The notes beneath the pieces are model-generated. The model saw nothing but the letters and a program-made list of their open reading frames with translations, had not been told where the DNA came from and did no database searches. A stretch of DNA of 34,242 nucleotides from Peribolospora baueri (taxonomy: Eukaryota): the NCBI GenBank assembly GCA_029717555.1, contig JAMDHS010000034.1:186001-220242 (forward strand), written 5' to 3'. Below are positions 1,283 to 29,158 of this stretch, piece by piece. Position 1 is the stretch's first letter; each line of letters begins with the position of its first letter. Position numbers and translations under genes: made by a program.

Positions 1283-4200
1283 TCATCCACCGATCTCGTG
1301 AAATAATACTATGTCCGTCCCTCCCGTCACCCATCCTCGGTCCCCGCTGGCTGTGATCATGTATCGACACGTTGCGTCCACCACTGCGGCGGATGTGTAG
1401 AAAAAGAGAGACGGAAGCGGGTGTCAGACAATAATTGTGTCCGAGGGGACGGCGCGAAAGACCAACAAAAACGCACGGATTTGCGATATCGCGCCACCAT
1501 GATGACCGGCGACGATGCGGAATGGTACGGCGGCTTTCGAGTTGGGCTCCGTGTTCCACAATCGGACATTGTCATACGAACCACTGTCGTTCAAGCCGAC
1601 ACAGTCAGCAGATGATGGGGACCGGACGATACGACCTCCATCAGGACCGGTGGGCTCACCTCAACAGATGCTTCCCATCCGGCATCGCTCGCACGCAGCT
1701 CACCGGCCCGCTTCCGCCGGGCAGCTTGTACTGCCTCTGCAACCTCGGGTTGCCCATCCTTCTTGGCACTTCGAGGCCCGACGCGGAGTACTCCGACCCT
1801 CCATCCGCATCAGCTGCGCCAGTCATTCGAAGATCCCACTCATCTATCAATTCGTTGCGTCGGCCGACGTAGATCGAAGTCCCTGTTGCAGACCAACATG
1901 CCTGGAGGAACCGAAATCATGAGTCGTCAAAAGCTCGCGAACGGACGGGTTGTTCCAGATTCTGCGCTCACCGAAGCGCACCACGGCGGCGTCCTCTCTG
2001 GCAAACCTAGACTTCGGACGGCCGCCGAGTTACCCGCCATTCTCCTGTCCCAAAGCATGACCTGACCAGTGATGGTGGTGCTGAGCATCACATCGGATGA
2101 GAACTTTGTGATGTCCGTCCCGCCGAAAGGGTCCTTCGACGTGGCCAGTGAAGGCGGAGGTAGCCGCGATCGACTGCCGCCTGCCTGGCCCATCGACATA
2201 GACGACAGTCCAGTACCATTGACGCCCTTGCCCATATCCTTCTGGGAGAGGGACGTGCCGGCATCCATGGCGCCCAGACCCGAAGCGGACGACCCAAGAC
2301 CATCCGTGCCTACATCGAGAGCGAGTGCATTATCCACCTCCCCTTCGGCATCGGCATCCGCCTCGCCTTCCGCGTCAGCGTCGGCGTCATCGTCTTCATC
2401 GAACAATGAGTTGGCAGACGCCTCGCTCTTCGCGTCAGTATCCTCATCCTTCGAAGACCTCCGGAATGAGCGAGGCAGATCCGTGTTTTCTTCCACAGTG
2501 TCGCCCTTCCCTTCCCAGTCGTCCTCTTTCCTCTCATCTCTGTCTCCATTGCGGGCCTCACCCAAAGAAGAGGACAAGGGAATGTCGGCACTGACATCGC
2601 TATTGGCGTCGGCCGGCGCTCCAGTGCCAATACTTCCTTCGGGCGCCAATCCAAGGCTGGCGCTGTGAGCCAACTCGGCGTTGAGCTCTGCCTCCAGGGC
2701 GAGATCCGCATCGTATTCCGCTCCCACCTCATCCCCATCCGTTCCTTTCCTTTGATCGTCCTGTTCACCTCCACCACCCGGCTCGTCTCCTTGAGCGCCC
2801 AGTGTCCCCGAGCTCGTCGACTCCTTGAGCGTGTCGCCATTAGAGCTGCCCAGTGGGCTTCTCTGCCTCCCGTCTTCCTCCCCTCCCCTCCAGTCCTTCC
2901 CAGGCGAGCGAGCGCGGCTACTGGAAGGGCTTGCAGGAGACGACTCGCGAACGGCTGAAAAGCCTACCATGATACTGGGAGACGTCGTCGTCGTCGTCGA
3001 CGACGACGGGAGCGGCCGGAAAGAAAGAGATGAGACTTGGCCTCCGTGAGGAGAGTAGGAGCGGACGATCTGGCCTGTGTTGAGGTCCCATTCCTGTCTT
3101 CCAGGCGAGGAAAGCGTCAGGAGCTGCTGTGGATTGAAGAGAAACGGAAGGTCAAACTCACGTGGACAGCTTTGTCCCAGCCTCCGCTCACGAGGTGAGT
3201 CTCGTCGCCGGTGAGAGCCATTGCGGAAACTGGGCCTGCATGTGCGGTTCGAGAAGATGATGACCGGTCGGAGAATGTGTGGCGCGTTAACCCCTCATCG
3301 TGTCGGATGCCAAAGAGATGCATATTCCCGCTCTGGAAGAGCAGAAAAGGAAAGGTGAGAATGGATCAAAACGTACATTAGCGCCTGCATGGCGGTGGCT
3401 CACCTTTGTCCCGCTGATCCCCCAGAGGGCGTCTGGATGGACGACGAGGCTATGCACCGCACACGGCGCAAACTCGCCATTGGCATTCAATGCGTACTTT
3501 GTCCCCTGCTGCTGGTCCACTCCGCCGTCGTCCTCCTTGTCTGCCTCTTGCTCTCTTCTTCTCTCTTCCTTGATCGCCAGCTCTTCCTCATTATCCCAGT
3601 AACCCAAAAGAACGCCAGCCTTCACCACGCCTTCGCTCTGCCCCTGCCTCTGGTTCTGTGTGAGCATTTGCTTGCTGTTCATGGTGGCCCAGAAGTCGTA
3701 CCGCCTCACAAATCCGTCCGCGCCGCCGGTGAGCAAAACAGACATGTCGAGTGACGCTGCCATGGTGTGGACGTGACAGCCGTGAGGTGCCGCACCGACA
3801 GGATCGATGTTGTATGTTCGACAGTGAAGGGCGGAGGAAGGGGGTGTGAACAGAGCACGTCTCTCCCGGACACGGTTCAGAAAGGAAGACGGCGATTCGG
3901 GTGGCGTTGAGGAAGGAGAAGCCGGAGGCTGGATTCCATCTGGGGAAACGAAAACGCTCGGTTCACATCGACAAGCGTATTCGACACGGCAGAAGGGGCA
4001 GTCTCACCATCCATTTCCATGTCCGCCACATCGTCCACATCTTTCCTGCAATTCCAGGTTCCGCAACGTCGGAAAAATGATCGTCCGACCATGCAACGAT
4101 GTGAGGAAAGCTCGGTCGCACAAGCAAACAGCGGTGGACAAAACGCTCACCCTTCGTTCTCGTCCTCCTCGTCCTCCTCGTCCGCCTCATCTCCTGCCAT

Positions 4201-4941: not shown

Positions 4942-6053
4942 TCAGATCTGGCGCGCATGCAAAGGAAGGAGAGCAAGCGTGAGCACAGACAGGACACTTT
5001 TCCGAGCGACGAGCAGCGCTAGTTACTCACATACTGCGACACCCAACGGAAACCCTCTCCGTAGCCCTGCCTCATGACGACGGAACACATGAAGATCTCG
5101 ATCGGACGGATGTCTTTCAGAGGCACCTTGCCCTGTGAATATGGGGATCGAGAGCGATGACGTTCAGCTTTGGAGGCTCTCCATCGCGTTGTCATTCTAA
5201 CCTCTGTAACCGTTCGCTCACCTTGCCAGTCGTCTGATACAGGCCGAGAGCATGCCGGAGGTCCTCCTCACTGACGGCACCAGGCGCATCGATCTTGTTG
5301 CCAAGAATGAGGAAGGGAACCTTGGCAAGCTCCTCGATGCCGAGAAGGGCATCGAGCTCGACCCGCGCCTCACCGAAGCGCTCGTGGTCCTGGGAGTCAA
5401 CGAGGAAGACGATGGCATCGACCTCTGGGAAGTAGTCCTTCCACACTCTGCGGGCTGTAAAAGACAGATACGACACGTCAGGCGGCCGTTGGTCAGCGAG
5501 CACGATGAATAGAATATTTTGGACAAGAAGACCTACCCTGAGTGTGGCCGCCAAGGTCGTAAGTAGTGAACTTGACCTGTCCAATCGCAAGTTCCTCGGA
5601 AGCTATCAAATATTACATGCAGATGAGCCGAGTAAGCGTAAGAAGAGGAAATACTGGCACTGCCGAAAGTGGTGCATATTAACTCACTCGGATAGAGGGT
5701 AGGCTGAAGGACGGCGAGCCTGTCGTTCTTGAGCATGTGCAGAAGGGTCTGCGCGTCCCGTACGTCGTAGTTCAGCTCCAGCCGCAAGGTTACGCAATGG
5801 AAAGCTCAGCCGTGGGCATCAACCAAAGGTGCTCACCGTCTTGCCAGCATTGTCGAGACCGAGGAAAAGAATCTTGGCGTTCTTGTGCGTAAGCCCTATG
5901 GTTAGAGATAGCCAGCAAATCTGTCAACAAAGATGCGCTCTCGCAAGCTGGCAGCGTCGTTCACCAATCCGCCATCTTGAACGCTAGAGAGCCAATGGTC
6001 GTCCACTCACCCAGAGAGGCCAGCACGTCCATCAACCAAGTCCAGATCCACAT
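4942..6053 (-). CDS. SAR1: Small GTPase Sar1 (COPII coat), 7 coding exons
   Basis: [121 protein letters not shown] introns; the last coding exon is ATC TGA at 4947-4942. Confidence 0.97.
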
Positions 6054-6864: not shown

Positions 6865-8390
6865 TCAGAAGATGACGTCTTCGTCCTTGCCGGCGGCTAG
6901 TATATCTCCGCCGCCCACTTCACCTGCACCTTTGTCATCGGCTTTACCACTGCTTGTGTCTCGTCGTTCACTCTCGCTCGCTCCAGCTGCTGCCGCAGCT
7001 ACCGCCTGCTCCAACGACTGCTGATCGCGCTTCTTCTTGCCCTGGATCTGTTCATGTCCAAAGATGCGAGGCATGTCAGGACATGTACTTGTCAGGACGA
7101 TGTCAAAAACACGACGATGTGATGGAAAAAAAAAAAAAAAAAAAAAAAAAAACCATATTCTTCACCTTCTTCAGCCTGAAAAACTCCTCGCTTGAAAATT
7201 CATCGTTTCAGGAAGGTCGTGTGAGGTCAGATTACGAAGTGGACATTGACGCGATCACAAGTCAACGACGGTGATAAAAAAGATAATCGAAATCGCAGAA
7301 AGAATGCCAGGGGAGCGCAAGTAAAAGGCAATAAGAGAAAGCAAGAACAAAGCCATGCGTCAGCATGCGGGTTCATGGTTAGCTTTAAGAGTTTAGCATA
7401 TTTGACTGACCGGTCCATCTCGTCGAGCTCAGAAATGATATAGCTGATCGTGTTCTCCAACCGCGGGATGATGACGTGCTCAATGGCATTGACACGGCGA
7501 TTCGTCATTCGAATTACTTCGTCAAGGATTACGAAGGCGGTCTGGTGGAAAATAAAAGCCCAATAGAAAGGAAGAACTTGAGTATGAGCACGGGCCTTGG
7601 CTCCGTTCACGTGTCACAACTCGGCCACAAAAGCATTCTGCACGCACCTGCAGGCTCGCAAGCTCTACCAGCGTCTTGACAGCCTGAGTGTACGTCTCCT
7701 TGCTCTTCTGTACCTTCTGACCTCCACGTCCAAGGCCAGTGAGACCAAATTCTGCGACGCAAGAAAAGGTTAGAATGGTAGAGGAGGCCAAAAGGGAGAT
7801 AGACGAGCATGGTAAGAGAAATGCAGCCGATCTGACGCTATCTGTCAAGAGGAAACACAAATATTCACCATTTTGTCCATCCGTATACGCCTCAAAAGCA
7901 GGCAGAATAACACCGCTGACGTTGTCCTGCTTGGTGCGCACGCGAAATTGTGCCGTCTTGGCGCTTTCTTGGACTTGATAGGCGATGTCGCCGGTGACGT
8001 AAGTGACTTCGGCAAGGGAAAAGGCAGCCAACTGCATCACTCGGCCCATTTTGCGCTTGGCCTGTCAAGAAACGACGTGGGGGGAGGGGGGAGTAGAAGA
8101 CAGTGTTATCAGGGAACCGGCCATGAGAGGTAGCCAATCGCCCCCAGCACTCTGGGCAGGTTGAACTGATACGAAGTAAAGAGCTAGGCCATCTCTCCTC
8201 AAACATCCTAAATAATCGTAAGACTGACTTCATCAATCTTGTGTGTGATGTCCCTGAACCTCTTGGTCAGAGCCTCCGACTTCCGCTTGAGAAGCGAGTG
8301 GCCCGTCTGTGCGCCCTTGAGCCGAAGCTTGGTGTTGGTGAGCGCCATGCGCGTTGGGAAGACAGATTCGCGAGGACCGGTACCGGACAT
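6865..8390 (-). CDS. VMA8: V-type H+-ATPase V1 subunit D (multi-exon)
   Basis: [144 protein letters not shown]. Confidence 0.97.
7126..7152. repeat. A27 homopolymer (poly-T on the coding strand) in the last VMA8 intron
   Basis: Run of 27 A's read directly from the sequence. Confidence 0.9.
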
Positions 8391-8549
8391 GACGGGCAAA
8401 CATATAAGTACGACGCTAGTATATGGTGGAGTATATGGCTGAAAGACGAGACGGAGAGGATAAGGTGTTTGCGTCGGACAGATCCCAGCGACGGTGAGAA
8501 TGGAGGGGACGTCAAGATCGTGGGCGTCGAGCAAGGGGGGTGATCGGCG

Positions 8550-8935
8550 GTCACGTGCACCGGCCTTCACTGTGCGGTCCCGAGCTTGGTAAGGTCCTGG
8601 CTGGCCAACACAAGGGCCGCTGCCCCAATCTCCATAACTGAAACAGTAAATAAGGAGAACAGGAGGGAATAATGACGGTAAGGTAGTTGAGGCGGACTGG
8701 TATCGAACGGGTGATGGCGGCGGCGACCGTCTGAGATGCTGAAAGCGGTCCCGCACACGGGCTGATGAACCGGCCAGAACCCTGCCAACAGCCGAAGCTG
8801 GCCACAATGCCGACCCTTTAGGTTACCTGACATCCATAGAATGGCTGCCTGCAACTACTACTTTCATGAGCACTTCTTTGCTCCGGACTTCTGTACTACC
8901 TGTATTTGTCCCGCGCTGAATCGGTATCACGTGAC
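8550..8935. promoter_or_regulatory. Divergent VMA8/SPP promoter with two CACGTG E-box motifs
   Basis: GTCACGTG at 8550-8557 and ATCACGTGAC at 8926-8935, in the ~620 bp between the head-to-head ATGs at 8390 and 9012. Confidence 0.35.
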
Positions 8936-9011: not shown

Positions 9012-10924
9012 ATGTCTTCCTCCGGTGCACAAACAGGTCTCTACATTGCCTATGGTGAGCACCCTGTCTGCGACGTGCTCTTGGTCTCCACATTCTGGTT
9101 CTCCGTGGTTATCCACTCCATAAGGTTGATCGTAATTAACGAACTACACCGTCCAGGCGCCCTCGGCCTCGGAGCTGTGGTTACCATTTATTGCGGTTCT
9201 TTCAGTTCTCTGAAGGTAACGTATTTACCATTGCTATTCCAAGGCGTAGGCAGATTTGATTAGACAGGGTTGGGCTGCTGACCCGCACCTCCATCCATCC
9301 ATCAGACGCCGAAAACGACGAAGAAGCTCCGCCGCGCTCGCGCGGTCCGCTCAGACGCTGAAGAAGAAGAAGAGTCCGAGGACGAAGGCGACGTCTCGGA
9401 GGTGCTCACCTCTTCCGATGCCTGGCTTTTTCCCATTTTCGGCTCCATCTCCCTATTTGGCCTCTACCTGCTCTTCAAGTACCTCGATAAGGAGTACATC
9501 AACAAGATCCTCAGTGCCTACTTCGCCGTCGTTGGCGTGCTTGCTCTTACTGAGGTAAGCGGTGATTCATATTGCTCAAGCGTCCTTTTTCAAGTTCTTA
9601 AGAGGTTGTCGTGCCGTTTAGACCAGCGTGGCTTTCGTGCGTGGCGCGGTGGGTCGAAACCTTTGGAGTAAGGTTGCCAAATGGAAGGTTTTGCTGCTCA
9701 AAGGGCCAAAAGGTGTGTGCGCATAGCTTCATTCGTTGCTGCGCGCCTAATAATTGGCACTTAATGACGTCTCCTCCCTCTGCAGAGGTCTTCCGCGCGC
9801 ACTTCACGGCCGTGCACCTCATTCTTCTTGTCACATCGGCGATCTTGACCGTCTACTACGTGATTACGAAGAACTGGATGGCGAGCAACGCTCTAGCTCT
9901 TTCTTTGGCGTTCAATGCCATCGGTCTCATGGGCCTCGATTCGTTCCGCACGGGAGCCATCCTTCTCGGAGGCCTCTTTGTTTACGACGTTTTCTGGTGC
10001 GTAACGTGTTCGTAGGCTGTCTTGGAATCGCGTTCCAACGTCTGACCTACGTATCAAATCTAATTTGCTGTGTTTTTCTCACGAACAGGGTATTTGGTAC
10101 GGACGTCATGGTCAGCGTCGCCAAGAGTTTTGACGCGCCGATCAAGATTGTCTACCCTAAGGATTTCAACCCACCTGCGGGCGAGAAGTTTGCATTTACC
10201 ATGCTCGGCCTGGGCGACATCGTCATTCCAGGTGAGCGTTTTCGTCTGTTGAGGCGTATATGATCTGATTTGTCTGACCATCTTGGCCCTCCTACCTTCG
10301 TCTCCAGGCATCTTTGTGGCCCTTGCTCTGCGATTCGATCAGCACCAGCATTCAGTTCGCAAGCCTTCCATCTCCTTCACTCGGCATTTCACCTCTTTCC
10401 CGAAACCTTATTTCACGGCCACTATGATCGCATATATCTTCGGCTTGGCAACAACCATGGCAGTGTGAGTTTGCTCCATTCAGCGTGGTCCAGCCACTCA
10501 ACTGACGCTGACAGCTTCTTCCATGCCCGGGCTGCTCAGTATGCATATTTTCAAGGCTGCCCAGCCCGCCCTCCTCTACCTGTCCCCCGCCTGCGTTAGC
10601 GCTGTTGCCCTCACCGCTTTCGCCCGCGGCGAGAACAAGACCGCTTGGGGCTGGACCGATGCGGAAGACGAAGCCTCGGAAGACGGCAGCGAGAAGGTCA
10701 AAACGGTAGAGCTAAGGAACAGTGAGAAGAATATTGGCAGCAAGCAGGCCCCGCGCGAGACTAACGCCACTGTCTCACTCACGTCCGATCACGACGGTGT
10801 TACAAAGTCCAACGGTTTGGCCGCTCCCGTCGATGCGGAAGCTGGAAGTGCGAGCGAGATGGAGGCCGATGGCGACGGGGAGGGCAAGAAGAAGCCGAAG
10901 AAGAAGAAGGGCAAGAAGAAGTAG
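9012..10924 (+). CDS. Signal peptide peptidase (GxGD intramembrane aspartyl protease, A22B; HM13/SppA/Ypf1 family)
   Basis: Catalytic GLFVYDVFWVFGTDVMVSVAKSFDAPIK and MLGLGDIVIPG, plus the HIFKAAQPALLYLSPAC (PAL) motif. Multiple TM segments; C-terminal KKKGKKK* fits a dilysine ER-retrieval signal. Confidence 0.96.
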
Positions 10925-11676: not shown

Positions 11677-14600
11677 TCATATCCCCACTTTCGTCACCAC
11701 GCCAAGACCTTTCGTCTTTCCCTCGCGGAAAAGCAGCTTCTGGCCCTCTTTAATGAACTCCGCTCGAGATACGAACTTGTCGCGAGGGTATGACAGGAGA
11801 GGTTAGCTTTGCTACCGAAAGAGGGTATATCGCCATGGATACAGTGCGGACGCTCACCTCGAACTGTACTGTGGCTCGGTCCCCCGTACGTATGACGGAT
11901 TGGTTCGTGTTAGCCGTCGATATGGACAAGATCTTCACCGTCTGCAGAAGAAAGCATGGGAAGAGAGCCACCAGCAACATGTGAGCCGAAAAAACATTCG
12001 ATAACGACGCTGCGCCGTCTGCTACACTCACCTGTCGTATGGCGCCGGAGTGCAGCATACTCTGATACCCGCGTTGAATGGTGGTGTTGTGGTAAAGAAC
12101 AAGGACATGTCCCTCAAATCGCCTGTGAGCCTTAACTTGCGAGTCCTTGGACATGACGACCATGCCTACACAGAAAGGAAGCACAAAGCTGAGCCATGGG
12201 CAAACATGCACACCTCAACCTTCTCCACGGAAGCGTACCTTTCCTGACTCCGCTCCTCTTCACTCTTTTAAGAGCGAAGCTAACGCTCTGTCCGGCCTCA
12301 GCAAAATCTACAGCTGCCCGCTTCCGCTCTATGCTCTTAATCACGGTTGTCTGGAAATTGCCCAAACTGTCGGGACCGAGGAGGACAGCATCGCCAGTGC
12401 GAACTGTGCCGGAAAGGACCACTCCAGAAACGACCGTGCCTGCAGAAGAAGAAAAGAAACCTTCAGGTTCCGCTTCCTAGCGTAAGGCAAATAGTTCCTG
12501 GAGACGACCCAAACATTTACTCACCAACGAAAGGAACACTGAAGACGTCCGATATTGAAAACTAAAGCAGCAAAGCACCATGCTCACATGTTTCAGTAAT
12601 GACGGTCTATGACGCTGTCGAACTCTGTTTGACTCACCTCCAAAGGGCGGTCAACATCGTATTTCCCCTCGCCACCAATGGGGAGAACATTGTAGAACGT
12701 CTTGAGCTCCTGTAAGCCCTGTCCGGTGACGTTGCTGACGAGGAACACAGGGCAGAGCCTGTCCCTGACGAAGGTCCGGGCGATATTGACAGCTGTTTCC
12801 TTGCCCCAGCCCTGCATGCGCTTGTCGCTAGTCGGCACAAACACAGGCTGCTTTCTGCACCCGGGCGAGCGGAGGATCTTGGTGAGCTGCTTCAACGTGT
12901 CGGCGAGCACATGCGGAGGGGTCATGTCTATCTTGGTCACGACGACGATGATGGGCACGGCAAGTGCGATGGCGACCGACAGATGCTCTTTACACATGCC
13001 GACCAGCCCGGCATTGGCACCTATGCATTAAATGATGGTAGGACTGAGCGTCAGGCATTAAGGTGACCTCATCACCAGTCAAGCTTACTCACCGATCATA
13101 AGGGTGACGAAGTCGGCTACGAATAAAAGACAACATGTCCTGTTAAGTCTGACAAAGATGGACTCTTTCCATAGGGGAACCAAAAAGTGACTTACGGGCG
13201 CAGCCAGTTAGTCCGAACAGGGTCGTCTGAAGAGTGATGAGGGGCAAAAAAAAAAGGCGAAAGAGGTCAGAGCTCGGGTTCGGCTCGAAACGCTCCTCCG
13301 CATCGCCGTGCTAGCCCACCTTGAGGTACTTCTCGTGTCCGGCCAAGTCGATGAAGCTGACAACCTTGCTGCTTCCCTTAACCACCTCGTCCCAAGCCTG
13401 GGCCTGGGAGATGTGCCTCCTCTGCCCAGCGGCAGACGCTTCATCCTCTTTCTCTTCCTTCTTGGGATTCGCGCCAGCCTTGATCGCTCTTTCAGCCTTT
13501 TCTTTCTCTCTCTCCCTGTCTTTGACGCCAGGGACAACCTGCCGGCCCTTATCGTCCCAGCCCATGATCTCCATGCCCACAGAGCTGGTGCGTCCAGAAT
13601 CAATTTCGTGCTGGTGTCTGAAAAGGGCAACGCGCGCCGCTCCCCTGCCGTCGTCCAGTCCAGCCCGAGTGAGCACGCCGAGGAGGGTGGATTTGCCGGC
13701 GTCGACGTTGCCTACGACTGCCATGCGGAGCTCTGACAGCTCCGACGCAGATGCGGTGTGCAAACGAGCAAGTATATGCGCGTATGTGCACTGTATTGGT
13801 TGGCTGGCCTCCTGAGACACCGAGTCCTGCTCGACCGTGCGCTCAAGCAGGACGGACATGCCGGCGCCGATAGAGGAAACGACGCGCTCTAGGTTTGCGC
13901 AGGCTTTCTTGTATTCGTCGGGAGAGAGACAGTCAGACTCTGGTATTCGAATATCCTCCGCAGGGTTCTTGGTCTCAGCTGCTTGTACCTCCATGGCCTT
14001 CTTGGCTTCTTTGGCGGACAAAGAGATATGGCCCCGCGTGCCGGGCCCGCTCCCTGTGGGGGGAGCATTGCCACCCTCCGTCTTGACGATCTCGGCGGCC
14101 GGAGGGGGCATGCCCAAAATTCCCATGTCGAGGGCGGGGAAGGTCTCGAAAGGCTTGTGGGCGTCGTACGCAGAAAAAGCCGAGGGCGCAGGAGCGCCTA
14201 AGCGGAGAATGAGTTCGGAGGACGATAAGGAGAGGTGGGTCGATATCAGCGAGGCCAAGTGCCGAAGGCGCTCGGGTAATGGAACGGAGGTGTCTTCAGG
14301 CAAATCGCCAAGCAAGTCGACCTGTGCACGAGCAGGTGAGAACGGGACGACGGCGTCGTTTGAGCATATAATACTACGGGGAAGGCAATGGGACCAGCTC
14401 AAACACGCCGAATCAGCAGGCAGCACAAGTAACTGACCTTGTAATCGCTCAGGTCAATATCCTCGATGTCATCCTCCATGGCCATCTTCTCTACCTCCTC
14501 CGCGAGTGAATCTCCCACACTGTCCTCCTTCTGTGCGGCCGACGCCTCCTTTGACGCCTCCTTCTTCACCTTGGCGCCGCCCGTCCCGCCAACAGCAGGG

Positions 14601-16886: not shown

Positions 16887-17308
16887 GTGGGAAATGTAGA
16901 TTTCGAACGTGTCTCAAGGAGAGAGTCCAGGGCTTGGAGAGGCGAAGCGTCCATCTACTAGGTTCCTTCCGCACTCATAAGACGTGAGGGGATCCCCGTG
17001 GTGCCGATCTTCCCAGCTTCGTTATACCAGCTGGAAAAAAAGAGTAACTGAAACAGAGCGAGTGAGAGTCCCATACACAGTTGTAATCTAGCGGTTGAAC
17101 GAGCTCGCTCCAGAGACATGGGATAGTGAGGAAAAATGAGCGGATGGCCCTGACGAGGGACAGACTTGAACTGATCCGCGTCGTGGAGTCAGTCGCGCGT
17201 CGGCCGATCGATGACAACACCGACCGTTACGCGCCCCACTTGTGTTCCGCAGCCTGTGACGACGGTCGACCAGCCTAATATCTTTCGACTACCACCATCT
17301 CCCTCAGC

Positions 17309-20300
17309 ATGGCCGAGCCACGGCCCTCCACCGACGACGACTCCGCTCCTCTCCTCGAGCGTGGCGACGGCGACGGCGAGACCCAAGCTCCGTTGCTCTT
17401 GGATCGCATCAAGGCCCACGCCGCCTCTATATTCCAGCCTCTGGCCGAGCCTGACTCGCTCCGCCCGCTCGAGCGCTTCCTTGTCTTCGTTGCCCTTCTC
17501 TTTCTACTTCTCTTCGCCATCTTCGTCGGCCTTTTTGCCGGCGCTCAACACCGCGTCAACCATCTCCCATTTTGCGACCCCGGTGATGGAGGCATCACCA
17601 CATCCACCAACCCTCATCCTGGCCCCACCGTCACAGCTACTACAACCAAGATCCCCAGCGTCCCTGGGCCCACAGGCTCTCCTTCTCCTTCACCCGGCAA
17701 TGACGGCCGCCGCGACAACATATGTTTGACGAGAGAGTGTGTTCTTGCCGCGAGCACCATCATCACCTCGCTCGACGAGAGTGTGGACCCGTGCACCGAC
17801 TTTTACCAGTTCTCCGTGGGCGGATGGCTCAAGCAACATCCCATTCCCCCTGGTGAGTTCTTATTGTGGCATGGGCCGTAATATCTGCGCATTGCGGTCA
17901 GGCCGTTGACCGCAAGCTCTGCCCTTTCGCCTTGTACCCCTCCGCCCCCTGCCCCTGTTTCCAGGCAAGGGCGCCTTTGGGGCTTTCAATCTCCTCCAGC
18001 AGCAGAACCTGGACCTCATCAAGTCAATCATCGACGATGCGTCTCCCGCCAGGCTGGCTTCATCAGCTTCCGAGCATTTGTCGGACGCGGACGTCGGCAA
18101 CTTGGCGACTCTGCGCGAGTTCTACGACTCGTGCATGGACGAGAAAGCGCTCGATCAGATGGGCACCCAACCCCTTTTGGAGATTGTTCAGGAGATCAGG
18201 AAGCTCTACTCTTCCGGGCAGGAGGATGACTTCCGGTGGGACGAGTGGCAACGCAATTCCGCTGTCGGCGAGCAACCTGTTTTCGCGATCCAAGACGGTA
18301 ACCGTTCTCCCCAGCCTCCCCCGCCTGGTGCACCTCGCCCAGCTCCGACGGATGAGCGGCCGCCCAAGCCTAACCCACATCCTCATCCCCCTACCGAATT
18401 GCCCAAGCCAGGTCCCCTCCCGCCTCGTGGGAAAGGCTTGACGAACGCCCTCCTCTGGGCCCAATCCAGAGGTGAGTCGAACACTGGTCCTCGAACACTT
18501 GCCCTCGCGCCTGTGTGACTACTTACCTATCCCTACGAGTTGCTTCTAGGTATTGATGCCTTGTTTCGCTTCGAGATCTCGGGAGACTACAAGAACGACC
18601 CGACGCGCAACGTCATCTTCCTGACCCAGGGCGGTCTCGGTCTGCCTGACAGGGTTAGTGCTCACATGGCCGTGCTGAAATTGGCTGTACCAGTCGCTGT
18701 CACGAGAAGTTGACGCTGTGTACGTCTTCAAACCTTCAAGTCATACTACAAGGATGACGAGACCGTCAAATTCTACCGCACCATCGTCCATGGAGTCCTC
18801 AAGGAGCTGTATGAGGTGCAAGATGGGAATGGCGAACAGGCTGACGGCACGCTGGCGGACAAAGTGGTCGACTTTGAAATGGAGATCGCAAAATTCTCGC
18901 TCGACCCGTGAGTATCGGATGTCACTCTCCCTTCAAAGACACCCCCATGTCTAACAATCAGTCCCGACTGCCTTTTTACTGAATACCAGTGTCGACCTCG
19001 ACGATCCATATGCGACCTACAATCCGGTCTCCTCTTTCCGCCTTTCCATCCTCTTTCCGCACGTCATCTGGCCCGACTTCTTCGGCGGTTTGAACGTGCG
19101 CGGACCTGACTATCCTGCCTATCCATCGAGGATCATCCTGACGAGCCCGGACTATGTCAAGAAGCTCTCGCACCTCGTCTCACGCACGCCCTCTCCCGTA
19201 TTAGAGGCCTACCTCGTCTGGCATGCCGGTAACGCCCTCGGCCCAAATCTCGGCCCGAAGCAGCCCGTCCGCCAGGCTCTCGAAAATTTGAAGAGCAGGC
19301 TCAGAGGCTCCGAGGGAAAGCCTGAAAGAGAGACGACGTGCCTCGAAGAGGTTGAGGACAAATTCGGCTTCCTTGCCGGAAGATATTTTGTCGAAAGGGC
19401 CTTTACTGGCGATAGCAAGGACAAGGCCGAAGGGATCATCAGGGACGTCATCGCCGCATTCAAAAGACGACTGTCCGAGCTCGACTGGCTCGACGAGGAC
19501 ACACGGAGTGCGGCAGAAAAGAAGGTAAGCAACCGGTCAGGTGCGAAGGTAAGCCGTTTCCTCCGTCGATTTGTCTCATATCCCGCCTCCATCCTTTCAT
19601 CGGGGCAGGCCGACTTCATCCGCGTCAAGATCGGCTATCCTCTCTCTCCTAACACGGAAGACCCCAAATCGCTTGCGCGGTACTATGCCCTTTCCGAAGT
19701 GAAAGACGGTGACCACTTTGGCAATGTGCTGCGTAATCGAGTGGCTGATCAGGTTAGGCGGTGGGCCATGGCTGGCAGGCCCAAGGACGAAAAGGCTTGG
19801 GTGGACTTCGTGCCTAGTACGGTCAATGCCTATTACACTGCCGAGGACAACGAGATTGTGGGTCAAAACTGCATCGTAATGGGGGCTAGCAAAGTGATGG
19901 GGTGGGTTGAGGTGGAGAGTGCTGACATTCATGAACAAACCATCCACCGTATCTTGCACCCGCAGGTCTTTCCAGCTGGCATCCTCCAGCCAACCTGGTT
20001 CCACAAAGACTGGTGAGCACTCGTGACCTTTCAAATGACGAACCGTCATCCGCTGATTGACGAACTTGCCGCCGTTCAGGCCCGAGTATCTCTCCTTCGG
20101 TGCCTTCGGCAGCGTCGCTGGCCATGAGCTCACGCATGCTTTTGACAAGACGGGTGAGTGGCGCCCTGGTAACCCCCTTTCGAGGCCTTGCCTGATCGCC
20201 TTTGACCACTCTTTATCTGCACAGGTCGTCTCTTTGACGGCGAAGGATACCTCGCGAACTGGTGGACGAACAAAACGGATCGCGCCTTCACAAAGCGGCA

Positions 20301-20949: not shown

Positions 20950-21639
20950 TTAAACTGTCCGTTCTTCGCCAATGTCCGCTTCGTCCTCATCGTCGAGATC
21001 CACCTGATCGGGAACTGCGAGTCGAGGAGAAAAAGAGACAAGCGAAAAAGGCAAATTATGGTCAAGGCCGCATCCGTCTTACAGACTCAATCTTGAAGCG
21101 CACAACGAAAGCTCACACCAGCCGAATTGGGACAGCGAGACTCTCCATCCCATCGCCGTCTGCGTGACCTCGACCCCTTCCGCACGCAAAGCGAGCGCCT
21201 GCCTCATCGCGCCTTCCCCGCCGTCTCCCCGAGGTGAGATGGCGCCGGAAGAGCCCAAGACTCGCTGCCACGGTACGGAGGGGTCGCCAACAAACTTGAG
21301 CGCCTGTCCCACCATTCGCGAGTGCGAGGGATGACCGGTGAGTCGGGCGATATGGCCTGCGTGCAGGATGGATGACACACATGTAGGCGGAGTGATCGGG
21401 GTCAGACGAGACGGCCATCCTCGTGAGAGGAGAGCCAGATCTAGTGCTAGAGCGCACCATAAGTGGTCACCTATCCAACCCGACAGAAGTATATCCAAAA
21501 ATGGAAGACAAACAATGAGCGGGGCCGTCCGAGGACCAGCACAGGAGTCGAAAATTATCAGACTGACCTTTCCAGGAGGGATCAGTCGACAGATGTCGTA
21601 TACCGTCGCGTGGAACTCTGCAGCGTCGACCACTGGCAT
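20950..21639 (-). CDS. ATL1: Alkyltransferase-like protein (ATL; MGMT DNA-binding family)
   Basis: EFHATVYDICRLIPPGK|VTTYG|HIARLTGHPSHSRMVGQAL..VPWQRVLGSSGAIS..QALALRAEGV..FGWFPDQ..V*. Trp replaces the catalytic Cys of PCHRV, which is the ATL hallmark. Confidence 0.9.
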
Positions 21640-22004
21640 CGCTCCCTTTCGGCCCCTTCGGCTGAGTGACGTCCTCTACAGCGACAGAGCGGCTCCCAGC
21701 GGCAGCGCGTTGGTCCAGAAGGGAAGTTGGGTCGAAGAGGAGAACGGAGCGGGACAGATCACACCACCATGCCTCGGCGCACGATACGAACGCGATCGGC
21801 AGCGGCGACAGCCAATTTACGCGCAAGCAATTTAGGTACGCGACACCCTCGTCGGATGTTTCCTTTTCACCAGCATCGCTTCTTTATACATGGTATAGGA
21901 AGAAAGGATCGACATAGAATGAGAGCGAGAGAGAGTATCGACTTTAGGATGTACATAGCGCATTACGCGGTCACGCCAGCACACACAGCGGATGCCCAGT
22001 TCAA

Positions 22005-25045: not shown

Positions 25046-28000
25046 TCACATCGACATGGAACGCAGACGCGAGCCCGTCAAGAGACGGCTCGGGGGCCGA
25101 CCCCTCGTATTGTCCGCCTCTCCGGCGAATAAGCTTTCTTCACCGGCGAGCGACGCGCGAGGATCAAACGGCTTCGGTGATTTGAAGGTGTACCCGACGA
25201 AGGCTAGCTGCTTCCGCATCTCAAGGAGGTGTTCGCCGTGTAACTTGTCCCGGAGCATCGGGTCACGAGGCTGATCAGCAGCAACCGGGTTCTCCGCCGC
25301 CCCGGGGGGAGCCAGAGGTTTGTCTTCGATGTCGTCTTCAAAGTGCTTCGTGTCAGCGGGATGGGAGAGCGCGGGCTGGAAGGGAGGGGTGTGGTTGTGG
25401 AGGTTGGAAAAGTCGAGACCGCGGAACCACGGATGGGACATGAGCTCCTCGACGCCGTCCGCCAAGCCGGACGGATTCGTCGTCCCTCCAGGACCTGCCT
25501 TGAATCCGGAGCGACGAGCAGACTGGAGGAGCGAGTTTGGTCTCGACACGGATGCCGTGGACGTCGAACCGAGCCTGTCCTCCTTCTCGCAAATGAGTCG
25601 CTCGATGAAGTCTTGTGCGTCTCGGCTCACGCGCGGCCTCTGTGGAAAACGGAGGGTCTGGCGCCAGTTGAGGATTTTCTGGCGCGTGAGGTGACGAGAT
25701 TTGGAGACGAAGGGAGGGTATCCGAAGAGCATCTCGAAGACGATCACTCCGAGCGACCACCTAATAGCGTACGACGGGCCCATCCACACCGACGTCGATC
25801 GATGTCAGCCAAATAGGGACGTAAAGGACGATAAAACGAAAAAAACTCACCAATCACAAGACTGATCATAGCCCATTCCGCGCAAAACATCCGGTGCCAT
25901 GTAGTTGTTTGTGCCTGCCCCACGAGAAGTAAGACATGACCATCGACGTCAGACCCGGTTCCAATGTCGTACCCGTCGGCTCCTTTCCAAGCTCAAGACA
26001 GTCAGGAAACTCACCTACAACGGAATAAGCCACCTTTTTTCTGTTCTTCTCCCTGAACGTCAGCACGTGGGTCACAGGAGTGCCATCCTCGTTTCGATCG
26101 CTCATGACCTGATCGAGCTCCTTCTGGTCAAGTCCGGCGCCGCGGACGGCGCGGCTGTCTGCACCTCTGGCAGCGCCGGGTCGACCTCTCCCGGCTCCCG
26201 CTGCCTTTGTAACTGGGTAGTCGTCGAGATCAATGCCATGCTTGTGTAGAAGGTGCTTACGTTGTTGGTCATAGTAGGCGCCGTCGTGCGCCCAATGGAA
26301 GGACTACAAATCGGGAAAGAGTCAGAAGCGCCTAGGGTCAGTGAGATGCCTTCCCCTCAACGAACGACAACAAATCAACTGTATGCTCGCCTGACACAGC
26401 CCAAAGTCTGCGAGCTTGATGTGTCCGTCACTGGTGAAGAGAAAGTTGTCAGGCTTGATGTCGCGGTGGATATAACCGAGCCCATGGGCCTCGTGGATGG
26501 AAAGGATCATTTCGGCGACGTAGAAACGCGCAAAGTCCTCTTCGAAGACGTCCCTGTCAATGAGGAGGTTGAGAAGGTCGCCGCCACCCATGAACTCCCT
26601 ATAGGCAAGAGCGGTTGAATGAGCACGAAAAGGAAGACCCAGTGGTTTCAGTGTACCCTCCACACAGTATAATCAGGCAGTAAGACAGACAAAGACCGAA
26701 GGAAGGACAGGCACCAACATGATGAGGTAGAGATGATCGACATCCTGGAAAGAATATTTGAGGTTTACGATCCATCGCACGCGACTGCTTGCGGCGGCGC
26801 TCGTCATCAGGTCCCTCTCCGCCCTCACGTGTCCCTCCTGACCCTTCCTTAGCATGTCTGCCTTGCGCAGCTGCTTCATCGCATAAAGTTGCCCTGTCCC
26901 CTTCTCCTTCACCAAGCTCACCACCCCGAACGCGCCGTGGCCGATGGTCTTGAGCCGCACGAACGCATTGGCGCTCACACGGGCGCGAACGTCGCGGAGG
27001 TAGTCGCTCTCGGCGGCCAACCAGGCCTCCCTGATCCGGCGCTTCTCCGCGTCGGGGATGCGGAGCGAGGCGAGCTCGGCTTCGAGGCCCGCTCGACGGG
27101 TGTCGCGATCGCGAGGCTTCTTGAGAAGGGCGTAGTAGACAGTCTCAAAGTAGATCTTGGCAGCCACGCACTTCTCCACCGTGGCAAGGCTGGGCACAAA
27201 GTCGGGTTGGTCCACAGAAGCCGCTGTAGCAACCAGCGCGGCCGCTTGCTCCTCATCGGAGACCTCGTCCAGCACGAGCATCGAGGTGGGTCGCCCACCA
27301 ATGGTGGAGATGCTCGCCAATGCGTTCACGGAGCCTGGAGTGGACGGCAGACCGTCGAAGGTCCTTCCGCCCACCTTTGCAACGACACACTCAGGGGACA
27401 GAGGTTGGTCCTTGATGACCGTCATCTCCGCAGTGTTAGTTTGCACCGAAGGCGGGATCACTGGCCTGCCCTGTGCGCTCACAGAAGGATCGAAGTCGAG
27501 ATTCAGAATTCCTCCCACGGGGCTCGCAGGCGGAAGTCCAGCCTTGAGAGCGGCGGGAATCTCCTGCTGGGGTGTGACGGCGGCGTTTTCCGCGGTTCCA
27601 TACGCCTCCTCGCCGATGCCTAAAAGGGGGTTGTGAGGCTGACCATCTGGATTCCGCGGGCTGGGGAGCTGCCAAGTGCCGTCCATGTTCTGCACGCCCT
27701 TGATGGTCGTCGCACCGCTCAAAGTGCTCCCAGAAGCGGCGCCGCCCCCGTTAACGACGTGCAGCTGACGCTTCTCCTCCTTGATAATGCTATTGTTGTG
27801 CATGTTAGTCTGAATCCGCGCTATAGCTTCCGCTTGTGCTCGCGCAGCGGCTAAGCGAGTTGCTTGCTTAATTGGAAGGGCCCACGCAGGATCTGAACGA
27901 GGGCGGTCCAGAAGGCTCGGTGTCAAGTCTGACTGAAATCGCGGGATGAGGAACGGCAGCACCTAGACGCTCTACTCACCGGCAACTTTGCCCACGCCAT

Positions 28001-29158
28001 CTCTGCTCCATCGCATGAGAATAGCCTCAGCCTGATCGGCATCGCTGGCGTGGACGGCGTGTATGAAGCCACGAGGGGCGGAGATTTGATCAATGCTGAT
28101 CCTCTTTTTCGCCGCCCTCTGCACTGGGGGGGGAGGACTAGCAGCCGCAGGTGTCAAGGGCTTAGGCGGAACAGCCGGTTGCGCGCACGACGGTAATGGT
28201 GTGGCAGCAGTGGAAGAGTAAGGTACAGAGAAGCCGTCGGCCGGAGGAGGGGCCATGGGAACGGGCGTCGCTCGAGATGCGGTAGCCTGCCAGAAGCCTG
28301 GCTTACCCCGAGCCGTGCCTCCTCCGTTGACAGCTGACGTAAAGCGTGAACCGGCAAGTCCACCGGGAGTTTGAGAGTTGACAAGAGAGAGCAAGTCGAA
28401 GAAACCCTTGTGCTGCAGAGCGGGAAAGCATCGGAGAGTCGGATAATGAGAACACAAGGGCCAATATAAACATCGATCGCGCGAAGAGGACGAAAAGACG
28501 TAGGACATGACAAGACTTCCCTCTGATGCATATCCCCTCATCCACTCACCATGAAAGCGCTTCCACCGCCAAACTTGCTGCCTCTCGTCGCGCCAAACCT
28601 GTTTTTGTTGCCAGCACCAGCTCCCCTTCCTTCCGGCGTGCCGTCATCATCCGGATTGGAGAAGGCGGTGGTGTTCGCGCGGCCTCCTCCCAACCTGCTT
28701 GTTGTCGCTGGTGGCGGTCGACTTCCCACTTGTTGCCGTTGCTCCTGCTGCGGGTGACGCAGAGGAGAAGAGGGAGCATGTTGCTGGCGGTGGTAAGGCC
28801 TCATGGCACCAGGAGGTAGACCTCCCCCTACCACCCTCATCGGGGTCGGCGTGAAAGCAGCGTAGGGGTGAGGGGCCTGTTGCGCTGCTGCCTGGTCCTC
28901 AATCTGTGTTGGTCGTTGCTCATATGCATTGCCGGGGCTCTCTGGCGGAGGGGTGACGTACCGAGGAAAGTATACTCTCTCAGCGAGGGGGTCGTACGCA
29001 TAAACGTCTTCAACAGGGTAGTAGGGTGGAAAGAGCGCCGCCTGAATGGGGAAGGAAGTGCCGCCGGAGACGCCGCCGGAGACGCTGCTGAAGGGTTGGG
29101 CCGCTGTAGCCGGGAGTGCTCGACCGCGCTGTGGGCGGGGCCCGCGCGGAGCTGCCAT
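25046..29158 (-). CDS. NDR/LATS-family AGC Ser/Thr kinase (Cbk1/COT-1-related paralog) with a long N-terminal extension carrying a CRIB-like motif
   Basis: Mob-binding NTR ([17 protein letters not shown]), [45 protein letters not shown], long activation-loop insert ending [26 protein letters not shown], and hydrophobic motif AFVGYTF. Confidence 0.9.

Follow-up and report, generated by a model that had tools for sequence, protein, structure and literature searches.

A CRIB-like module on a Ukc2-type NDR kinase of Peribolospora baueri is conserved across fungal phyla

The window analysed here is a stretch of 34,242 nucleotides of the Peribolospora baueri genome (assembly GCA_029717555.1, contig JAMDHS010000034.1, positions 186,001 to 220,242 of the forward strand), and all positions below are counted from its first letter. 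It contains, on the minus strand, a gene for an NDR-type protein kinase whose N-terminal part carries a CRIB-like (Cdc42/Rac-binding) motif. An earlier note, made from the letters of this DNA alone, had pointed to the motif at 28050-28085, and the match is exact in the minus-strand translation of 27981-28412. The presence of a deeply conserved CRIB-like motif on a kinase of the Ukc2 type implies that this kinase may answer directly to Cdc42 or Rac. The gene is made up of the following parts:

25046-29158, minus strand: whole coding sequence of the NDR-type kinase, orthologue of Ukc2/UMAG_02741 (7 exons, 3492 nt, 1163 aa; from splice sites and tblastn collinearity)
28550-29158, minus strand: exon 1, low-complexity Pro/Gly/Gln-rich N-terminus, 203 aa (open frame, ATG at 29158-29156, GTGAGT donor)
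27980-28412, minus strand: exon 2, HKGFFDLL motif and CRIB module (144 codons plus 1 base; 40 homologues)
27893-27979, minus strand: intron 2, 87 nt, GTGAGT...GTTCAG, which cuts the module between GKVA and DPAW (orthologues are uninterrupted here)
26719-27892, minus strand: exon 3, a variable linker, a probable N-terminal regulatory region of Mob-binding type and the kinase N-lobe (Pfam Pkinase match; alignment of an orthologue with the Cbk1 chain)
from about 27194, minus strand: start of the probable N-terminal regulatory region in exon 3
26919-26942, minus strand: GHGAFGVV of the kinase N-lobe, exon 3
26391-26598, minus strand: exon 4, catalytic loop and DFG, with a GC donor at its end (sequence reading)
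26391-26408, minus strand: DFGLCQ, exon 4
26015-26303, minus strand: exon 5, NDR-type activation-segment insert, ending at AYSVVG (sequence reading)
25851-25914, minus strand: exon 6 (sequence reading)
25046-25760, minus strand: exon 7, kinase C-lobe, AGC C-terminal tail and stop (Pfam Pkinase, Pkinase_C)
25181-25201, minus strand: hydrophobic motif FVGYTFK, exon 7
25046-25048, minus strand: stop codon TGA

The introns of the gene measure 87-137 nt, five being of the GT-AG and one of the GC-AG type (26390-26304). Exon 2 is flanked by AG and GT, and its in-frame junction to exon 3 reads GKVA/D/PAW; in the orthologues GKVADPxW runs unbroken across this junction, and tblastn with three orthologues is collinear from 28421 to 25049. 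The gene model, the splice between exon 2 and exon 3 included, is thus supported by homology, and the in-frame joining of exon 2 to the kinase exon (GKVA/DPAW), which had been predicted from the letters, agrees with the reading frame, with the continuity of the orthologues and with tblastn alike. Exon 1 lies outside all tblastn matches of the orthologues, and the start codon is therefore the least certain part of the model. Intron 4 (26304-26390, minus strand) has a GC donor (GCGAGC...TTGTAG), and the GC-AG reading is needed because it gives DFGLCQ/SFHWAHD, in line with the orthologue consensus DFGLATDLHWAHD.

Pfam recognises Pkinase and Pkinase_C in the kinase, which has an AGC tail with the hydrophobic motif FVGYTFK. 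About 90 residues, supplied by exon 5, separate DFGLCQ from AYSVVGT; a long insert between DFG and SVVGT is a hallmark of NDR/LATS kinases. The best solved relatives of an orthologue are Cbk1 (359 bits) and NDR1/STK38 (309 bits), with MRCK, ROCK and DMPK at 211-239 bits, and its alignment with the Cbk1 chain starts at residue 21 and takes in the N-terminal regulatory region. In blastp searches with exons 3 and 7 the best matches are family members from Ustilaginomycotina, the UMAG_02741 cluster among them, at 47-50% and 71-77% identity, respectively; the C-lobe of the Ukc2 cluster is 71% identical to that of the kinase described here. By these comparisons the kinase is an NDR-type AGC kinase and the orthologue of Ustilago maydis Ukc2/Cbr1 (um02741, UMAG_02741). 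It shares with Cbk1, Ukc1, COT-1 and Orb6 the activation-segment signature (DFGL..xFHxxHD) and the hydrophobic motif, and Cbk1 is the closest solved structure; the Pneumocystis member of the family does not stand out as nearer to Cbk1 than the basidiomycete one does (376 versus 359 bits). The canonical fungal NDR kinases are not known to carry a CRIB.

The U. maydis gene has been studied under two names. According to Lanver et al. 2014 (PMC4102580), um02741 is ukc2, the gene of a second NDR kinase that is 45% identical to Ukc1 (Um04956) and is induced 4-fold in filaments. The same paper reports normal cell morphology for the ukc2 deletion, together with reduced filamentous growth, 50% fewer appressoria, 70% fewer tumours and Congo red sensitivity; the assignment of Ukc2 to the MOR pathway or to another one is, in its words, a matter that "needs to be investigated". 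In a teaching paper (PMC6268829) the gene is named Cbr1, "Cbk1-related", and inhibiting an analogue-sensitive allele is without effect. The separation of Ukc1 from Ukc2 in PMC4102580 led us to reject the possibility that the gene is the Cbk1 orthologue itself, and it supports the view that the gene encodes a paralogue of the canonical NDR kinases, of the Ukc2 kind and probably distinct from Cbk1/Ukc1.

The CRIB-like motif is part of a conserved module of about 70 residues, which begins in exon 2 and ends in exon 3. Its parts, and the motif that opens exon 2, are as follows:

28380-28412, minus strand: HKGFFDLL-type motif at the start of exon 2 (invariant columns H179, G181, F182 and D184 in the 31-orthologue alignment)
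28086-28109, minus strand: basic lead-in KKRISIDQ, which extends the CRIB on its N-terminal side (R, I and S invariant in both alignments)
28050-28085, minus strand: CRIB core (P, H and H invariant and F kept in at least 90% of the 56-sequence set, across phyla)
28008-28049, minus strand: family-specific predicted helix that immediately follows the CRIB (invariant in the 23-stretch alignment: A, S, D, A, Q, A, E and W)
27810-27892, minus strand: end of the module in exon 3, a predicted long helix (P, W and K invariant in the 23-stretch alignment; helix 58-84 of the module model)

The CRIB consensus is, as Burbelo and co-workers are said to have given it in 1995, I-S-x-P-x(2-4)-F-x-H-x-x-H-V-G. 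Six of its eight positions (I, S, P, F, H, H) are present here in the right order and with the right spacing, and a basic patch lies upstream. The pattern [ILV][SG]xPx(2-4)FxHxxH is matched once in the six frames of the window, the mean in 300 residue shuffles being 0.01 (at least one match in 3 of the 300). The module exceeds the CRIB core on both sides, upstream by the basic KKRISxDM, of the type seen in WASP and Borg proteins, and downstream by the family-specific ASDAxQAExxLxRW...GK...PxW. The basic patch, which had been noticed on first inspection, is thus a KKRIS lead-in of the WASP/Borg type; KKRISIDQ can be aligned both with [KR]ISKDMI, which leads into true PBD repeats, and with the WASP and N-WASP chains.

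Two further observations concern these N-terminal stretches. The motif HKGF[FY]DLL[SA]L, which keeps its H, G, F and D in all of the 31 basidiomycete orthologues, is found in the 56-sequence set in basidiomycete rows only, none of them from Tremellales. A reading of RRIS/KKRIS as an NDR pseudosubstrate was rejected: the stretch has no His at position -5 of the NDR consensus, and the Ser of KKRIS is not kept outside Basidiomycota and Mortierellomycota.

The conservation of the module was followed in sets of increasing breadth. A search with exon 2 retrieved 40 longer proteins, nearly all of them kinases, from Exobasidiomycetes, Agaricomycetes and Sporidiobolales. The P, the F and both His are kept in 39 of the 40: the strict CRIB pattern is present in 24, and 15 more, including P0038 with its variant downstream tail, have G for S ([IV]GxP) and keep F-x-H-x-x-H. 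The remaining protein has a deletion at the motif that is probably a gene-model error. Across 31 full-length basidiomycete orthologues, the columns without any variation in the N-terminal part read R-I-S..M...P....F.H..H-A-S-D-A.Q-A-E....R-W.....G-K...P.W....K. The widest alignment, of 56 sequences, covers Mortierellomycota, Glomeromycota, chytrids, Pneumocystis, Tremellales, Agaricomycetes and Pucciniomycotina, and the sole invariant residues before the regulatory region in it are the CRIB Pro and both His; at least 90% of the sequences also keep the CRIB Phe and one Ala in the helix that comes next. The conservation of the two His, a check that had been proposed for Basidiomycota, thus holds in that phylum and extends across fungal phyla. 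A relaxed CRIB pattern occurs in every one of the 56 family members, twice in the chytrid, and in 0 of 87 unrelated kinases (92,981 residues).

A profile built from 23 module stretches was searched against 1.84 billion proteins and gave 122 matches at E<=0.001, of which 52 are at E<=1e-10. The family ranges over Ustilaginomycetes, Tilletia, Pucciniales, Tremellales, Mortierellomycota, Glomeromycota, chytrids (Spizellomyces, Entophlyctis) and Pneumocystis. Among 125 further members, 114 score at least 15 bits with the profile, and the 11 that fall below are mostly N-terminally short models or very divergent forms from Pneumocystis and Spizellomyces. Outside the main basidiomycete groups the segment downstream of the core takes such forms as TETEAEAE, AESGEQAE, ASTFEEAT and ANNKEEA. 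As judged from this distribution, the module is much older than Basidiomycota and reaches well beyond that phylum.

Several lineages deserve separate mention. Tremellales orthologues come from Kwoniella, Tremella, Naematelia, Kockovaella and the non-pathogenic Cryptococcus amylolentus, C. wingfieldii and C. floricola; C. neoformans and C. gattii have no row among the 107 matches, which possibly reflects a limit of the word-based search or a loss in the pathogenic clade. A search with the kinase region of the Podila protein gave 3504 matches at E<=1e-40, and the analysis covered the best 120 of them. Ascomycota are represented among these best 120 by only two Pneumocystis proteins (P0381, P0383), with IS[SL]P[VI]DFRHLAHAN, and neither Saccharomycotina nor Pezizomycotina has a row among the best 120 of the 3504. 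In the orthologue from the chytrid Entophlyctis helioformis (P0139), three CRIB-like stretches stand in tandem ahead of the NDR kinase domain, at residues about 3-20, 81-121 and 147-180.

The evidence that the motif is related to true CRIBs comes from profile searches, in which each CRIB match is weak when taken alone (at most 24 bits, PDB E of at least 0.12). The module profile recovers crustacean proteins with 2-8 tandem CRIB repeats of the form [RK]ISKDMI[GS]xPxNFxHVxH (E 2e-13 to 4e-6), to which Pfam independently assigns PBD (E 5.7e-34 to 4.6e-8). Single true PBD repeats score up to 23.8 bits against the profile and always fall on profile positions about 9-34. In the PDB (E<=10), 4 of the 12 matches of the profile are CRIB chains, namely WASP (1cee_B), N-WASP (6uhc_H and 8s5t_A) and PAK6 (2odb_B), and all four lie on profile positions 4-35. 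With the N-terminal fragment of a Mortierellomycota protein all three PDB matches are CRIB peptides of PAK4 and PAK6 (best E 0.12), the alignment being KRISKNMISEPRNFEHLIHTE against KRKKRVEISAPSNFEHRVHTG. Pfam PBD at E<=1 is found in 19 of the 56 members and is the sole non-kinase family common to many of them. The Entophlyctis helioformis orthologue alone passes the PBD gathering score (33.1 versus 21.3 bits), other family members remaining below it (17.4, 15.7 and 13.1 bits). The UniRef name of an N-terminal fragment from Kwoniella bestiolae is "CRIB domain-containing protein". The profile searches thus tie the module to true PBD/CRIB sequences, and the claim of a conserved CRIB-type element on an NDR-family kinase holds at this level. 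The scan with Pfam PBD that had been suggested at the outset went the other way, the gathering score not being reached by the sequence of this gene. Taken together, the stretch is, by its sequence, a divergent member of the CRIB kind that falls outside the formal Pfam definition in this gene.

The same searches gave some side results. The crustacean proteins (Procambarus clarkii and Penaeus japonicus clusters and unnamed relatives; P0079, P0087, P0119, P0106, P0084, P0093) are uncharacterised and have an unusual architecture, with 3-8 tandem CRIB/PBD repeats, low-complexity linkers between them and PBD E-values down to 8e-38. Pfam DUF7939 weakly (E 0.12-2.1, well under its cut-off of 27 bits) overlies the module in 3 of 10 proteins (P0013, P0012, P0008) and in 8 of 31, probably by chance. 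A look-up in the ESM Atlas with the U. maydis module gave no usable match.

A kinase with an N-terminal CRIB resembles known systems in different respects. U. maydis Ukc2/Cbr1 (1224 aa) has the same module (KKRISIDMVGAPQTQTFVHAAHASDAEQAE...) at residue 361, with four residues between P and F versus two here (ISAPRGF). The PAK/Ste20/Cla4 kinases, especially the type II kinases PAK4 and PAK6, likewise combine a kinase with an N-terminal basic stretch and a CRIB, and the PAK4 and PAK6 CRIB peptides align residue for residue with the Mortierellomycota version (ISxPxNFEHxxHT). The catalytic domain of the PAKs is, however, of the STE20 type, whereas the one described here is of the AGC/NDR type with a probable Mob-type regulatory region, an activation-segment insert and a hydrophobic motif; the segment that follows the CRIB in this kinase is, we presume, unrelated to the inhibitory switch of the PAKs. 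MRCK, a Cdc42-binding kinase of the DMPK family, is a CRIB-bearing AGC kinase from the clade nearest to NDR and the next solved relative (239 bits). Its CRIB is located at the far C-terminus, after coiled-coil, C1, PH and CNH domains. Unlike in MRCK, the CRIB is N-terminal here, and none of the coiled-coil, C1, PH and CNH regions was found by Pfam in 31 and 56 members. WASP, N-WASP and the animal multi-CRIB proteins have an extended CRIB with the lead-in K-K-x-I-S-K-x-D-[MI]-[IG], matched by KKRISxDM[VI][GS]xP of the family; they differ in being non-kinases and in keeping H-V-G.

Structure was predicted for the isolated module and for a full-length protein. The AlphaFold2 model of the module alone is of low confidence, with a mean predicted local distance difference test score (pLDDT) of 62, and has an irregular CRIB followed by helices 34-46 and 58-84. 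In the full-length model of the Podila protein, made with 56 sequences, the CRIB core has a pLDDT below 50 and the helix after it (77-89) one of 63-67, the kinase and three helices of the regulatory region (residues 179-246) being predicted with confidence; this model has no confident docking of the CRIB on the kinase. The models fit a CRIB that would be disordered until it meets its partner, as expected for a CRIB modelled without its GTPase.

A number of results weigh against a functional CRIB. Pfam PBD does not match exon 2 of the window even at E<=10; it matches 2 of the 31 basidiomycete orthologues at that threshold (best E 0.024), and 37 of the 56 members have no match at E<=1. The best PDB matches of the module profile, at E 0.058-0.11, are unrelated non-CRIB chains, among them DXP synthase (E 0.058) and PII, every CRIB chain in that search being at an E of at least 0.47. 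As single sequences, the 53 residues of the window matched no CRIB chain in the PDB (3 matches, all to ribosomal protein bS20), nor did an agaricomycete fragment (5 matches, all to oligoribonuclease). The words CRIB, Cdc42 and Rac1 have zero occurrences in the main text of PMC4102580, and the available part of PMC6268829, in dealing with Cbr1, makes no mention of CRIB. The V-G that follows the second His of the consensus is replaced by A-S; the first of these replacements had been remarked on at the start, correctly, and the next residue, G, is also replaced, by S. All basidiomycete orthologues have H-A-S, and other phyla have H-T-E, H-A-E or H-A-N. The solved CRIBs of PAK6 and PAK4 have H-T-S and H-T-G at these positions, i.e., they also lack V-G, which means that the position is variable among accepted CRIBs and that A-S is not disqualifying. 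Finally, the downstream invariant segment ASDAxQAE..W..GK..PxW belongs to no known PBD, and the CRIB-like stretch could therefore be part of a different binding unit.

This last point leads to the most serious alternative, namely that the stretch is derived from a CRIB, or has converged on one, and no longer binds Rho GTPases, and that together with ASDAxQAE..RW..GK..PxW it forms a family-specific unit for another partner (a scaffold or a Mob-type protein) or for an autoregulatory fold-back. Such a unit would be consistent with the strictest conserved run in basidiomycetes being H-A-S-D-A-x-Q-A-E and not H-V-G, with the failure of Pfam PBD on most basidiomycete members, with the weak DUF7939 matches over the module and with the moderate confidence of the post-CRIB helix in both models. 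It is, however, the P, H and H of the CRIB that are invariant across all phyla, and the downstream segment that varies; T-S or T-G stands after the second His in solved true CRIBs, and a fold-back finds no counterpart in the full-length model, where the CRIB, at pLDDT <50, does not dock confidently on the kinase. We consider this alternative possible, though rather unlikely. A purely accidental resemblance, without function, in a low-complexity N-terminus is far less credible still. Short motifs can arise by chance in a proteome and the sequence of the window alone has no significant database match, but one match is observed against 0.01 expected per window, the key residues do not vary in any of the 56 sequences from the different fungal phyla, the flanks of which diverge freely, and the module profile has 52 matches at E<=1e-10 among 1.84 billion proteins; a chance motif is contradicted by these conservation data and was rejected.

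It could also be argued that exon 2 is part of another gene or transcript lying upstream and that the kinase starts downstream of it, the fusion being an artefact of the gene model. Some annotations are in fact split: Kwoniella bestiolae has models of 546 aa (CRIB-bearing) and 465 aa versus an older one of 996 aa (P0064/P0157 vs P0158), and Podila verticillata has adjacent models of 383 and 736 aa (P0167 vs P0161). Intron 2, however, splits the module itself, and the halves are contiguous in every orthologue (GKVADPxW); the module and the kinase are found in one protein in 114 of the 125 further members, in many independent annotations; the orthologues are collinear in tblastn over 28421-25049; and in the compact Podila protein the CRIB precedes the kinase domain by only about 190 residues. 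A separate upstream gene, which we regard as very improbable, was rejected on the splitting of the module by intron 2, the contiguous orthologues and the one-protein family members.

The reading that we prefer, with moderate confidence, is that the Ukc2 orthologue carries, in its long and mostly disordered N-terminus, a divergent but genuine CRIB whose binding of GTP-bound Cdc42 or Rac1 would recruit or activate the kinase. In such a mechanism GTP-bound Cdc42 and/or Rac1 at sites of polarised growth would bind the basic lead-in and the CRIB as an extended strand, and this binding would recruit the kinase and/or relieve its inhibition. A Mob co-activator would bind the conserved N-terminal regulatory region, and the activation-loop Ser (AYSVVG) and the Thr of the hydrophobic motif (FVGYTFK) would be phosphorylated in the manner known from other NDR kinases, Mob binding and the phosphorylation of the hydrophobic motif bringing activation to completion. 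Further contacts, or a part in autoregulation, may come from the family-specific helix that follows the CRIB. The output, as expected from the published ukc2 deletion, would be to support filamentous growth, appressorium formation and cell-wall integrity. The binding of a GTPase, its dependence on the nucleotide, the choice of GTPase and the effect on kinase activity are all inferred here from sequence.

The rest of the window offers other genes, which were named by Pfam on open frames between 1930 and 21675:

1930-4003, minus strand: SPT8-type beta-propeller
5195-5602, minus strand: Arf-family GTPase, the sole small GTPase of the window
7230-8822, minus strand: V-ATPase subunit D
9282-10921, plus strand: signal peptide peptidase
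12135-14453, minus strand: EF-Tu-type translational GTPase
17279-20013, plus strand: M13 peptidase
21082-21675, minus strand: O6-methylguanine methyltransferase

Polarity and morphogenesis in fungi centre on two systems, the NDR/LATS kinases and the Rho GTPases. The known links between them are indirect, an example being the action of Orb6 on Cdc42 regulators. A CRIB on an NDR kinase, if true, would be a direct, one-step link from GTPase to kinase. We found no description of such an arrangement in the literature searched, most subscription journals being outside the scope of the search. The kinase family and the type of motif are both known, and it is their combination that appears to be undescribed, though automatic annotation recognises it in a few orthologues. 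The suggestion of the earlier note that the module is an undescribed one has thus to be narrowed, as the kinase family has been described as Ukc2/Cbr1 and one orthologue fragment has been annotated automatically as CRIB.

The family is found in smuts, rusts, mushrooms, arbuscular mycorrhizal fungi, Mortierella, chytrids and Pneumocystis, and full filamentation, appressorium formation and virulence of U. maydis depend on the member in that species, as reported in PMC4102580. With a candidate CRIB at hand, the question of the pathway in which Ukc2 acts is reduced to whether the module binds Cdc42/Rac-GTP and what role the two His play in it. More tentatively, and at somewhat short of an even chance in our judgement, it can be proposed that fungi ancestrally have a third NDR branch beside RAM/MOR (Cbk1) and MEN/SIN (Dbf2), in which Cdc42/Rac-GTP acting on the N-terminal CRIB would switch on a Ukc2-type Hippo-like kinase at polarity sites. 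The apparent absence of this branch from the model species of Saccharomycotina and Pezizomycotina would explain why it has not been described earlier. Such a third branch, if true, would be as old as the chytrids, one of whose orthologues carries three CRIBs in tandem, and it would settle whether Ukc2 works within the MOR pathway or outside it.

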